Below are positions 34,196 to 52,797 of a DNA stretch of 64,000 bases, piece after piece (positions within the stretch are counted from its first letter, which is position 1; each line of letters opens with the position of its first letter). This DNA comes from Octopus vulgaris (taxonomy: Eukaryota): positions 16,988,001 to 17,052,000 of the forward strand of contig OX597831.1 in NCBI GenBank assembly GCA_951406725.2, in the 5' to 3' direction. A program made the position numbers and the translations under genes. The notes beneath the pieces are model-generated. The model did not search any database, had not been told where the DNA came from, and saw nothing but the letters and a program-made list of their open reading frames with translations.

Positions 34196-37100
34196 ATGAA
34201 ATATTGTTTATGTATTCTTCTCTTTGTTCGTAAGTAACGTGAAATGTCATTCATAAATTATTTTATGCACAATATATGATTCCGTTCTCTTCTTTCTCTC
34301 AATATAAGTGTGTAATTATATATAATTATAAATATATATGTGTTTGTATGTGTTATTGTGTGTGGGAGTATGTCTGTGCATGTATATGTGTGTGTGTGTA
34401 TGTGTGTATTTGTGTGGTTGGGCGAGTGTGTATATTTGTATATCACAAATACTATCGTCATCTCCGCCTAAGCGAAGACGGAGTTGTCTTGGCGGGATTT
34501 GCGCTCTCTAAGTGCTTTTGTTCATATTTTAATGAATAATCTGGGAAGAGAAGTTATAAAAGTTGTCATTTATTTCTTCTTTTTCTTTTGTAGATCATAA
34601 ACGTTTCGGTCTCTCTTTGCTAGTTTTTTTTTGTATAATGAAAAAATGCAATTTTCAAACTAATTTTGTGGCACTAAAAAAATTGCAAATTCAACCCAAA
34701 ACGAACTTTAAATAGAATCATCCTTCAAAGTTATAACCCTAGGCGAATGTATGGCTATGTTTTCAAAAAACTTCCTCTGCATTAACATGGTGGAAGATTG
34801 GGAAACACTACGTCGTATCGTGGTTCAGTTCCCTCTATTACATCAAGAGACCGGTGAATAAAATTGGAGATAGTGGAAAATGAAACAAACCTATTTTACA
34901 CATATGTATCTGTGTGCCTTTCCCATAGTACAGATTCAGCGACCAGCTTACATATTGTCTGCTGGTTCATTGGAAGCACCATAATTTAGTGTTTCTGAAA
35001 TATAGACACATCACATGAGTGCCATGTAGGAATGTATTTGTTGTGCTATACCCACAAATCCAATACCAAAGTAACGACGATTCTCCAATGAGTGAAATAA
35101 ATACAACGATAAAAAATATGTCCAGAGAATAAATTATAACATCTTTAATTTACAGATGTTGCAGTATCAGAATTACGTGAATATTGCTACGAATTGGGAA
35201 AGAAATATTGCTATAATGGTATGAGATGGTATCCTATACCAACTCATAAAAACGACACATACTATTGCAAGTATGTTCGATTCTTTATAAAGAAAATTTT
35301 TCACATTTTTAAAAATTGAATTTATAAATGTATATATTTATCCTGATCGAAAAATGCATTGTAAATAAACAACGAGGGATAAAGGACGTCTGCTGTACTG
35401 AGCGTAAAACCAATGGGAGGGAGACAATTAAGGTCCCTAATTCATCATCAGTTATGAACCAAAACACAGCGAAGTATTCACTCTCATCGTTAATGTAGCG
35501 AAACTGAGAAATAACGCTTTGGTCGGTAACTGATGACGAATTAGGGGCGCTCTGTTCGTATCCTCCGTCCGGATGTACACTCAGTGCAAGTATATGTTAC
35601 TATGCGTCGTTTATTTGCAATGCGTTTTTCCATCTATTTAATGACGATGCGCAAAGAAATAACGAGTTTTATTAGAAGTAAGATTATATATATATTCATA
35701 TCTACCTGCTATTTATGTATTTAAGGCAAGGAGCTGAGTGAATCTTTAGCACACTTGGCAAAAAAGCTTATCATTTCGTCCGTCTTCACAATCGTAGAGC
35801 ACATTCTGTCGACTGCGACTTTGTCTTTTATCTTCTCTGGGTCAAAATAATAATTACCACCTGAACACTGATGTGGATGTAATCAACTCTCAATCAACAT
35901 ATTCCAAACTATTTAATGATCCATTCAATCTTAGATCCACTTCTAGCGATAATTTGTTTACAGAGTTTTAGTCCAGACTGTTGAAACCAAAAGAAGCCAG
36001 GCAAGGATTTTGTTTACGACAACAAATTTTCATCTCACCTGTATTCGAATACAGCAATTAGCGGGTAGGAACATTTAACCCGATTAAAAATTACAGACCT
36101 GCAAATTCTTCTGTAAACATATCGATGTAATATAAATAATAGCTTAATGTATTGGCTCAAGGTCAGGAATTCCTATGCTACCAAATCTCACCGATTACAT
36201 TGACGACGGGACATGAACTGAAAGAGCAGATATCATGTTGATCTTCACATCCTTGAACCTCTGAAAGTAGAAAGCCAGACGAAATATTACTATGCAAATA
36301 TTTCCAAAGCTCGAATAATCCTACAAGTACATCACCATTAGATAAATATGACAAATATTTCCTCTTACTTGAGGCACGACGCCTAAAGCTTGGGGGGGGG
36401 GCTAATGGATTATATCGACTGAGTGTTCAAATGATAATTTTGTTTCGACTTCGGATGGATGAAATATACAGTTTAACTCAGGACGTAAAACGACGAAAAG
36501 GCTGCTGAGCATTTTGTCCAGCGTGCAAACAATTGTACCAGCACGTGACCTTCAATTTGAAGTTATTGAATTAACACCATGGGATTGAATAAATAATCCG
36601 TAAGTAAACCATGCACAATGATACCAACTATATTAGAATATGTCATATCAAATGTATGACTTCGATATCGTGTTATTAAAAGTAAATAACTGCTATTTTA
36701 CATTAGATACGTTAAACAATATGCATAGAATATTATTCCATGGCATATATTATAATTTTATTGCCAAATTTATTTTTTCTCTTAGTCGAATAAATATGTT
36801 CCATAGCTGTTTTAAAGGAAAGTTCGAGGAGTGCACTAACTTATTCGACAACATATTTTACAAGGAAAAATGTGGTAAGATATTTTCATTACATATTGTA
36901 GTATTACAAGAAATAATGTTTCAAAGGATCAAACACATACAATCGTTATTTTGCACTTAATTTTATTACCTAATATTCCCGTGAACAACTATTTTTATTG
37001 AATGGAACTACTATCGGCAATAAAATGGGTTTTTTTAATGTTATACTTATCAGTTAACAATTCTCGTTCCCTTAAGCATAATTATAATCACTGTCTATAT

Positions 37101-37483
37101 TGCTAGTATGTATGAATATTGTATGTGATTGTAGGTATTTATAATGTTATGAGCAATAAAATATAAATTTGTTAAATTGAATCAATGGTTAAATAGTAAC
37201 TTTTGTTAATTTGCAAATCCATAGTAGTTGAGAATGTACCCAATTGAGGACAGGGAACTTAAAATAATAAATACTTACATTTCTTTCTTTTTACATGACG
37301 GTTTTATTAACAGTCGTTGGAAAGCCCATAAATATAAACCAAAAAATAAAACAAAGTAAATATGCACCGTATTTTCTGTTTATTCTAGGTGATGTAATGG
37401 CTAAACAGAATGCTCCTCCTTCCTTCCGCCTTCAGTCAACATGGCTCCTATCGTTGTTTCTAATAATATCGGTATTGCTGTGA
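34196..37483 (+). CDS. Paralog C (intact): 110-aa small Cys-rich protein with signal peptide and GPI-like tail; coding exons 34196-34229, 35156-35270, 36786-36874, 37389-37483
   Basis: All introns are GT..AG with compatible phases (1,2,1); 34+115+89+95=333 nt with no internal stop. Translation: MKYCLCILLFVHVAVSELREYCYELGKKYCYNGMRWYPIPTHKNDTYYCNRINMFHSCFKGKFEECTNLFDNIFYKEKCGDVMAKQNAPPSFRLQSTWLLSLFLIISVLL*. AATAAA at 37535-37540. An in-frame upstream ATG at 34178 would add MTRVTT. Exon phases are conserved in the other copies. Confidence 0.88.
35349..35630. mobile_element. MITE-like imperfect fold-back element in intron 3 of C
   Basis: aaaaatgcattgtaaataaac ... gtttatttgcaatgcgttttt and inner ccctaattcatcatcagtta ... 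taactgatgacgaattaggg; partly deleted homolog at ~50748-50920. Confidence 0.65.
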
Positions 37484-51900: not shown

Positions 51901-52797
51901 ATTTGAAGTTCTTGAATCAACATCATGAGAATGAATAATTAATTTTTAAGCAAACTATGCACAATGTAGCAAAATATGTTAAAATACACCGTATAGCAAG
52001 GATGATTTCATAATCGTATTAATAAATGTAAATAAGTGCGATTTAATGTTAGATATGCTAAATAATATGCATCGAATTATATTATAACTTTATCTCCGTA
52101 TTTGTTTATACTTATAGTCGGCTGTTTAATTTCCAGCTTTGTTTAAAAAGAGACTGGAGGGTGTATAGTGAATACTTGGAGAGCGTGTTTCACAAGGAAA
52201 AATGCGGTATTATATTTTCTTTTCATATTGTAGTAATTCGAGAAATAATGCTTCAACGGATTGAATAGATACACTCGTTATTTTGCACTTGATTTTATTA
52301 ACTAATATTCCAGTGAACACGTGTTTTCATTCAATAGATCTATTATCTGTAATGAAATGGGTTTTACTAATGTTACAGTCATTATTCGTCAATTTTCATT
52401 CCATGAAGCATAACTATAATCACTGTGTATCTTGCGAGTATGTATATAACTATTCAATGTAATTTTACGAAACAATTGTTAAACTTAAACTTGCTGCTAA
52501 TTTGGAAATTCATAAAAGTCGAAATTACACCCAACTGAGTAGGGGAAAATTAAAATCAGAAATAAACGCATTGTATATTTACTTGAGATTTTTGTTAACA
52601 ATTGTTTGAAAGCCAATCGTTAGAAATGGTAAAATTGAAAATGTAATTGATCCCCGTATTTTCTATTTATTCTAGCTGACATTATTACTAAACAAGGTAA
52701 AACAGTTAAACAAGTTAAACAAGATGCACCTCCTTCGTCCAGTCTTGAGACATTATGCATCCTTCTATCGCTTCTAATAATATCGCTGTTGTTGTGA
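48990..52797 (+). CDS. Paralog D (intact ORF): 114-aa homolog of C; coding exons 48990-49023, 50591-50690, 52118-52206, 52676-52797
   Basis: GT..AG introns with the same phases as C; 345 nt. Translation: MKYCICIIFFVHAAVSEFCYKEGMRLCKETMKVYPIKPHDKLYCNRLFNFQLCLKRDWRVYSEYLESVFHKEKCADIITKQGKTVKQVKQDAPPSSSLETLCILLSLLIISLLL*. Exon length differences versus C are multiples of 3 (-15, +27). The fifth core Cys is replaced by Tyr. AATAAA at 52849-52854. Confidence 0.85.
49384..49750 (+). mobile_element. Helentron-associated (HINE/DINE-like) element; collapsed ~60-bp version at 34460-34520
   Basis: Subterminal inverted repeat ctc(c/t)gcc.. / cttggcgg(a/g) followed by a 3' hairpin (gcgctctctaagtgc in C), at the same intron 2 position in C and D. 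Confidence 0.55.

Follow-up and report, generated by a model that had tools for sequence, protein, structure and literature searches.

Mature-domain exons that outpace non-coding DNA in a tandem six-cysteine gene family of Octopus vulgaris

The stretch of Octopus vulgaris DNA considered here (64 000 nucleotides, C18:16988001-17052000 in a genome of 2.8 Gb; referred to as the window) holds tandem copies of a gene for a small six-cysteine protein. In the first-pass annotation, the mature-domain exons of these copies were described as diverging faster than the adjacent introns, and this was ascribed to positive selection. The questions raised by the locus are whether the contrast extends beyond the copies first compared and what causes it. 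The mature exons diverge 1.5–2 times as fast as the non-coding DNA around them. As to the cause, we consider it somewhat better than an even bet that the family turns over by birth and death in tandem and that drift, selection at a minority of sites and gene conversion together accelerate its mature exons, the products being predicted glycosylphosphatidylinositol (GPI)-anchored or secreted recognition molecules.

The gene consists of a putative non-coding exon 1, a signal exon (34–43 nt), exon 3 (∼100 nt, encoding Cys1–Cys3), exon 4 (86–89 nt, encoding Cys4–Cys6) and a last exon. The encoded proteins (98–130 aa) comprise a signal peptide, a single six-Cys domain of ∼62 aa (spacing C-x7-C-x16-C-x8-C-x7-C-x11/12-C, spread over two exons) and a GPI-like or Gly-Lys-ended tail. 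A survey of 1.06 Mb of C18 located 22 intact units of exons 3 and 4 and five broken copies in a 0.58 Mb tandem array (16.73–17.31 Mb); all four coding exons were located in 14 of the intact units, and the six Cys are present in 21–22 of the 22. The flanks (C18 16.49–16.69 and 17.35–17.55 Mb) gave weak matches only (E at least 0.11). Exon 3 matches on C26 lacked the exon structure of the family and were set aside as chance.

Rates were compared in eight phylogenetically independent pairs of paralogs (16 of the 22 units), the expectation for each pair being taken from its own base-specific table of non-coding substitutions (2.6–18.7 kb, repeats masked). The mature exons diverged more than the non-coding DNA of the whole duplicated unit in 8/8 pairs when aligned strictly and in 7/8 when aligned leniently (window-permutation p, combined over pairs, 1e-8 and 3e-5; for the C–D pair the DNA alignment, 64/189, was used in this test, the protein-guided alignment giving 73/186). 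They carry 155 amino-acid changes against 103.7 expected (1.49×) and 35 synonymous differences in otherwise unchanged codons against 20.1 expected (1.74×). The signal exons carry five amino-acid changes against 13.1 (0.38×) and no synonymous difference against 4.5, and the tails 46 against 27.8 and 14 against 6.6 (2.1×), respectively. When rate heterogeneity was simulated, the p values for amino-acid and synonymous excess were 0.0008 and 0.004 (strict) or 0.016 and 0.019 (lenient). Tree lengths agree, with ratios to introns of 1.9–2.2 for nonsynonymous divergence (dN) and 1.7–2.0 for synonymous divergence (dS) in a six-gene left clade that includes copy A (941 intron columns) and in the clade C/D/g11/g12 (694 intron columns); for a seven-gene clade containing C and D the intron alignment kept 89 columns and the dS ratio was not used. 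The outpacing of introns by mature exons thus holds over more paralogs and over whole duplicated units, with the signal exon conserved and the Cys scaffold invariant.

The pair first compared comprises copies C and D, which are laid out in the window as follows.

31700..31858, forward strand: copy C, putative promoter plus a non-coding first exon (its donor at 31859), both proposed from conservation
34196..34229, forward strand: copy C, signal-peptide exon, coding portion of 34 nt
35156..35270, forward strand: copy C, exon 3 (Cys1–Cys3)
36786..36874, forward strand: copy C, exon 4 (Cys4–Cys6), the exon compared in the first-pass annotation
37389..37483, forward strand: copy C, last coding exon, encoding a spacer and a hydrophobic C-terminus, probably GPI-signal-like
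46930..47073, forward strand: copy D, putative TATA box together with a putative non-coding first exon, whose donor is at 47074
48990..49023, forward strand: copy D, signal-peptide exon, coding portion
50591..50690, forward strand: copy D, exon 3
52118..52206, forward strand: copy D, exon 4, with Tyr in place of Cys5 and a non-consensus donor context
52676..52797, forward strand: copy D, last coding exon, with a 27 nt insertion relative to C and a hydrophobic C-terminus

On recounting, the original figures proved exact: exon 4 of C and D differs at 34/89 nt with 9/29 aa identical, their signal exons differ at 3/34 nt, and exon 4 of A and C shares 7/29 aa, three of them Cys. The 15 differences in the first 89 intron nucleotides were also exact but unrepresentative, as only 8% of windows (187 overlapping windows of 89 columns along the C/D introns) contain 15 or fewer. 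Introns 1–4 differ at 543 of their 2209 aligned columns (identity 75.4%), so that the contrast of 62% with 83% becomes one of 61.8% with 75.4%. Intron identity across the duplication is therefore not as low as that of the exons; no window reaches the 34 differences of exon 4, which lies below the introns by Fisher's test (p = 0.006), and exon 3 differs at 30/100 (exons 3 and 4 together versus introns, p = 0.007). Three DNA contigs lie ∼1.5% from copy C; among the differences listed, five fall in exons 3–4 (four replacement and one silent).

Since synonymous sites are as accelerated as replacement sites, a mature exon that outpaces its introns is by itself no evidence of selection, contrary to the earlier argument; the average dN/dS (ω) stays near 1 because synonymous changes are raised alongside amino-acid changes (pairwise Nei–Gojobori NG86 values range from 0.58 to 3.14, one pair being undefined with dS = 0). 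Codon models were fitted with code that reproduces the IQ-TREE M0 likelihood. In the seven-gene clade, ω ≃ 9 was estimated at ∼11% of sites, with a likelihood-ratio statistic for M1a versus M2a of 22.4 (p = 1e-5), of 15.4 with double hits (p = 0.0004) and of 8.5–8.7 with site-rate variation (p ≃ 0.014). Six sites have a posterior above 0.8 (Cys2+1, +2 and +6, Cys3−5, Cys4−1 and Cys5+5), and the subset C/D/g11/g12 gave p = 0.005–0.013. For the whole family (22 units, 58 codons) ∼30% of sites appear constrained, ∼65% neutral and 4–9% at ω 2.4–3.0; in the left clade M8 was preferred to M8a (p = 0.015–0.02). The models suggest diversifying selection at a minority of sites in the C/D clade. There the estimated dN/dS exceeds 1 at those sites, while the mean over more paralogs is ∼1; positive selection as originally proposed is thus supported by the models in this clade, whereas elsewhere the tests are not significant or depend on the model.

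Gene conversion had been named as something to be checked among the paralogs, and a pairwise homoplasy index-type test found recombination in the introns of both clades tested (p = 0.001 in the left clade and p = 0.008 in C/D/g11/g12). Homoplasy in C/D/g11/g12 was higher in exons than in introns (5/18 versus 4/74, p = 0.013); the left clade has no such exon excess (10/24 versus 35/81). We propose that most non-scaffold residues would drift freely, that about a tenth would be under diversifying selection, and that gene conversion would homogenize introns and signal exons, whereas mature exons that have diverged would be retained. Such a conversion sieve is, we infer, the cause of the synonymous excess.

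Several results weigh against this explanation. The synonymous excess itself does so and recurs at four-fold sites (18 differences against 9.7 expected), as does a mean ω near 1 (M0 ω 0.99–1.25 in the clades used for tree lengths). The excess is weak in the five youngest pairs taken alone (amino-acid and synonymous p = 0.045 and 0.030 strict, 0.19 and 0.11 lenient). For the whole family M1a versus M2a is model-dependent (p = 0.11 with F3x4, 0.08 with F1x4 and 0.002 with F61), and in the left clade M2a is not significant (p = 0.09–0.38). The site tests may also be liberal, because recombination, which can yield false positives, was detected among the paralogs yet lies outside the site models. 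Finally, a conversion sieve predicts raised intron divergence beside the exons, and no such halo was found (up to 400 nt from the exons, divergence is 0.82–0.92 times that of the unit as a whole); synonymous changes were not significantly co-located with replacements (p = 0.12), nor was clustering of changes significant as a cause of the synonymous excess (p = 0.07 and 0.12).

A mutation rate raised locally in the exons, as has been suggested for conotoxin genes, would lift dN and dS alike, selection doing no more than keep the scaffold. Such hypermutation fits a synonymous excess that is present in mature exons and tails yet absent from signal exons, a rate step that is sharp at the exon borders, and an excess that is not CpG-driven (4/18 four-fold differences in CpG context, as are 28/129 sites; observed/expected CpG ≃ 1). 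An exon-wise gradient of dN and dS like this one is reported for conotoxins (PMC3862624). However, only 35 synonymous events are involved, two recurring at the same codon in different pairs; their p value rises to 0.019 under lenient alignment and to 0.11 in the five youngest pairs, and the sites with ω > 1 survive site-rate variation in the C/D clade. Hypermutation is accordingly judged decidedly unlikely, and selection with conversion is favoured because recombination has been shown, whereas we know of no mechanism for exon-local hypermutation.

The mature domain might instead drift neutrally under relaxed constraint, the alignable introns under-reporting the neutral rate through filtering, constraint or conversion. 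This would suit the 65–70% of sites that fit ω = 1 in most fits, an M0 ω near 1, the five broken copies among 27, the loss of Cys5 in D, the recombination in introns, and the three deepest pairs, which align over just 2.6–4.8 kb yet bear most of the signal. Against it, three pairs at 2–3% divergence, with 9–19 kb aligned per pair, still have exons 1.8–2.7 times faster, and filtering hardly acts on them; lenient alignment shifts the neutral rate little in 7/8 pairs; and M2a beats M1a in the C/D clade independently of introns. A biased yardstick is an explanation to be taken seriously, although on balance it seems unlikely.

In a masked self-alignment of the window the duplicated units are collinear; it contains the 3′ half of A, pseudogene B, intact C and D and an inverted remnant E. 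The features other than C and D are as follows.

C18:16978270-16978309, left of the window: copy A, signal exon
C18:16986324-16986423, left of the window: copy A, exon 3
5030..5118, forward strand: copy A, exon 4 (second mature exon), with AG/GT borders and an open frame
5560..5627, forward strand: copy A, last coding exon, for a hydrophilic tail of the secreted type that ends in Gly-Gly-Lys-stop
17194..28570, forward strand: copy B, pseudogene with LINE-like insertions within
17194-17227, forward strand: copy B, signal exon, intact
near 17537-17670, forward strand: copy B, exon 3, frameshifted
near 24427-24536, forward strand: copy B, exon 4 remnant without acceptor
near 28490, forward strand: copy B, last-exon remnant
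59595..60926, reverse strand: copy E, 5′ remnant in inverted orientation, comprising exon 1 plus a signal exon that has neither start codon nor donor; cut through by a LINE-like element

Copies of long interspersed nuclear element (LINE)-like retroelements on both strands (1-2340, 17896-23525, 26500-28060 and 56161-59380) interrupt pseudogenes B and E. A near-perfect inverted repeat (palindrome; arms of ∼240 nt around 12530) occupies 12520-12770. Directly 3′ of the stop codon ∼50 nt are kept in 11 of the 15 copies with a mapped last exon (window 5625-5680, 37481-37540 and 52795-52850, and other copies), even between A and C, whose introns scarcely align; this block is possibly a regulatory element of the 3′ untranslated region.

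The tails of these 15 copies fall into two kinds. Nine (C, D and seven further copies) close with a hydrophobic stretch (hydropathy 2.3–3.3 over 12 aa at the extreme C-terminus) that would act as a GPI signal. The other six end in G-G/R-K-stop, which we take to be an amidation-like motif. The latter ending is found in all members of the left clade (C18:16.75–16.99 Mb; L027–L040, L001–L010 and window 5030–5627), none of which has a hydrophobic tail; five of the six carry an internally duplicated exon 4 (182–185 nt, 8 Cys), A keeping the 89 nt form. With predicted secretion, a net charge of +1 to +13 (mostly cationic) and no close match in O. bimaculoides (30–40% identity), they are candidates for secreted peptides, and these may be amidated. 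A venom or salivary toxin repertoire engaged in a predator–prey arms race would match this clade and the toxin-like architecture of the family, but the GPI-like tails of the nine other copies, the lack of a toxin match in Pfam or PDB and the absence of a propeptide exon make it improbable.

Elsewhere in the array (C18:17.166–17.250 Mb, L062–L070) two-gene units alternate, and three units have a signal exon and exons 3–4 with no last exon found; these could splice in phase into a neighbour. In O. bimaculoides the corresponding locus, LOC128249887, is a three-domain gene with six isoforms. Likewise, g23 and g24 (C18:17276765-17285222; L073–L074) match both domains of the single O. bimaculoides protein P0009 and are likely to be one two-domain gene. 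A C-x7-C...C pattern is common to exons 3 and 4, which MAFFT aligns onto one another, and the domain may derive from an ancient exon duplication.

A profile search of 1.84 billion representatives returned 26 family proteins; the 23 looked up (all except P0011, P0014 and P0017) are from Octopus and are named `uncharacterized' or `hypothetical', apart from one `secreted protein' and P0009, which bears an automatic UniRef name, GDNF/GAS1 (no GDNF/GAS1 Pfam row was found among the proteins scanned, which did not include P0009). The O. bimaculoides RefSeq models (e.g. XP_052830353) have the same signal–domain–tail layout, and best-matching mature domains are 52–77% identical between the species (13 units, g12–g25, plus C and g11). 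A second cluster, of multi-domain relatives, lies on both strands of C6 at 103.9–104.7 Mb (103.90–104.74; 43/51 matches), the O. bimaculoides query having up to about nine domains. Two unnamed mollusc clusters scored 0.93–0.94 in the ESM Atlas, so the family may have wider kin among molluscs. Homology searches with copy C exon 3 returned nothing and with P0003 only itself. Some O. vulgaris gene predictions equal array copies letter for letter; P0001 and P0002 join exons from adjacent copies and lack the signal exons, and a public protein for copy C was not found.

An alignment of 19 rows led AlphaFold to an all-helical model (mean predicted local distance difference test score, pLDDT, 80.5; 58 from a single sequence, a poor model). 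Fold searches with this model, signal and tail helices included, found nothing that matched clearly (Foldseek best E = 1.0; VIA best Z 5.5). Pfam, PDB profile, ESM features and structure all point weakly to the RGM N-terminal domain (PF06535) or neuritin (PF15056). RGM_N scored 37.9 bits in the four-repeat prediction P0001 (cut-off 24.2, exceeded only when summed over repeats) and 22.0 bits in P0002; six of the 19 alignment rows had E ≤ 1 (best 0.026), single domains being below significance. The hhalign probability for an RGM-type match was 0.6%, structure 4uhz_B matched weakly (Z 3.3, r.m.s.d. 3.9, 55 aligned), and neuritin had an ESM feature score of 0.83, the mature part alone giving no usable match; no NRN1 (PF15056) row was found in three proteins and 19 alignment members. 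Kinship to either is thus a weak lead. RGM and neuritin are GPI-anchored proteins encoded by conserved low-copy genes. The octopus domain would resemble theirs in being small, helical and extracellular, with six Cys and a C-x8-C-x7-C core. The family differs in being a fast-evolving tandem array without the RGM C-terminal (vWD-like) part; the true octopus RGM is on C2. Complex prediction for the domain with the best TGF-beta-family match of the genome (presumably BMP2/4-like, by motif) gave no answer (score 0.00).

Birth-and-death turnover, variable helical surfaces and predicted GPI-anchored and secreted forms fit a ligand-recognition repertoire, and by analogy the proteins may bind a fast-changing partner. 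Microbial or non-self ligands are a possible partner, gamete or mate recognition a less probable one, and venom or saliva targets (secreted clade only) and neural wiring each have a slim chance. We would regard as very doubtful an octopus-specific recognition repertoire on an RGM-N/neuritin-like helical scaffold with truly hypermutable, sharply bordered mature exons; if true, it would unite GPI-anchored, secreted-amidated and multi-domain forms in one repertoire and transfer the conotoxin `hypermutation' paradox to a non-venom family, where young tandem duplicates, assembled in full, would let mutation, conversion and selection be told apart. More generally, the locus brings to light a sizeable, unnamed and fast-evolving cephalopod family. 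Its two clusters were for the most part overlooked or merged into fused models by automatic O. vulgaris annotation, and, in an animal that lacks adaptive immunity, its products are candidates for recognizing non-self, gametes or prey. It is also a tractable case of the old cone-snail and snake question of why silent sites of mature exons should evolve faster than introns and signal exons, since one assembly contains adjoining young duplicates with 9–19 kb of alignable flanks.

No description of the family was found in the literature searched, although subscription papers and supplements might mention it; six family ids are not in the ink-proteome supplement, and the accessible parts of 10.1101/2022.06.11.495763 and PMC7656900 contain none. 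The evolutionary pattern, in contrast, is already known from conotoxins, mussel MgCRP-I and snake venom PLA2.

In the `accelerated evolution' of snake venom PLA2, reportedly described by Nakashima et al. in 1993, the introns of paralogs are more alike than their mature exons and dN/dS is near 1; the octopus protein is unrelated, has no enzyme domain and shows a smaller excess (1.5–2×). MgCRP-I (PMC4558851) is likewise a genus-restricted molluscan multigene family with a UTR (untranslated region) exon followed by a signal exon, phase-1 and phase-2 introns, six invariant Cys, a hypervariable mature region and multi-domain members. It differs in its adjacent Cys3–Cys4, short spacings, dibasic-cleaved propeptide and one-exon mature peptide, set against the wider octopus spacing over two exons. 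Conotoxin gene superfamilies (PMC3862624) have signal and mature regions on separate exons, a conserved signal exon, a fixed Cys framework, and dN and dS that both rise from signal to mature exon; the octopus mature exons are raised in dS as well as dN (p = 0.002–0.02, small counts). The conotoxin-like pattern originally noted is therefore real as regards the conserved signal, Cys scaffold and hypervariable mature exons, although nothing in the analysis ties the family to venom. The octopus domain is ∼62 aa over two exons, predicted to be helical, with no propeptide exon, no sequence match to conotoxins and GPI-like tails in many copies, and it lacks general preservation of Cys codons, only that of Cys3 being fixed (TGC in 22/22, beside the splice donor; Cys6 11/11).

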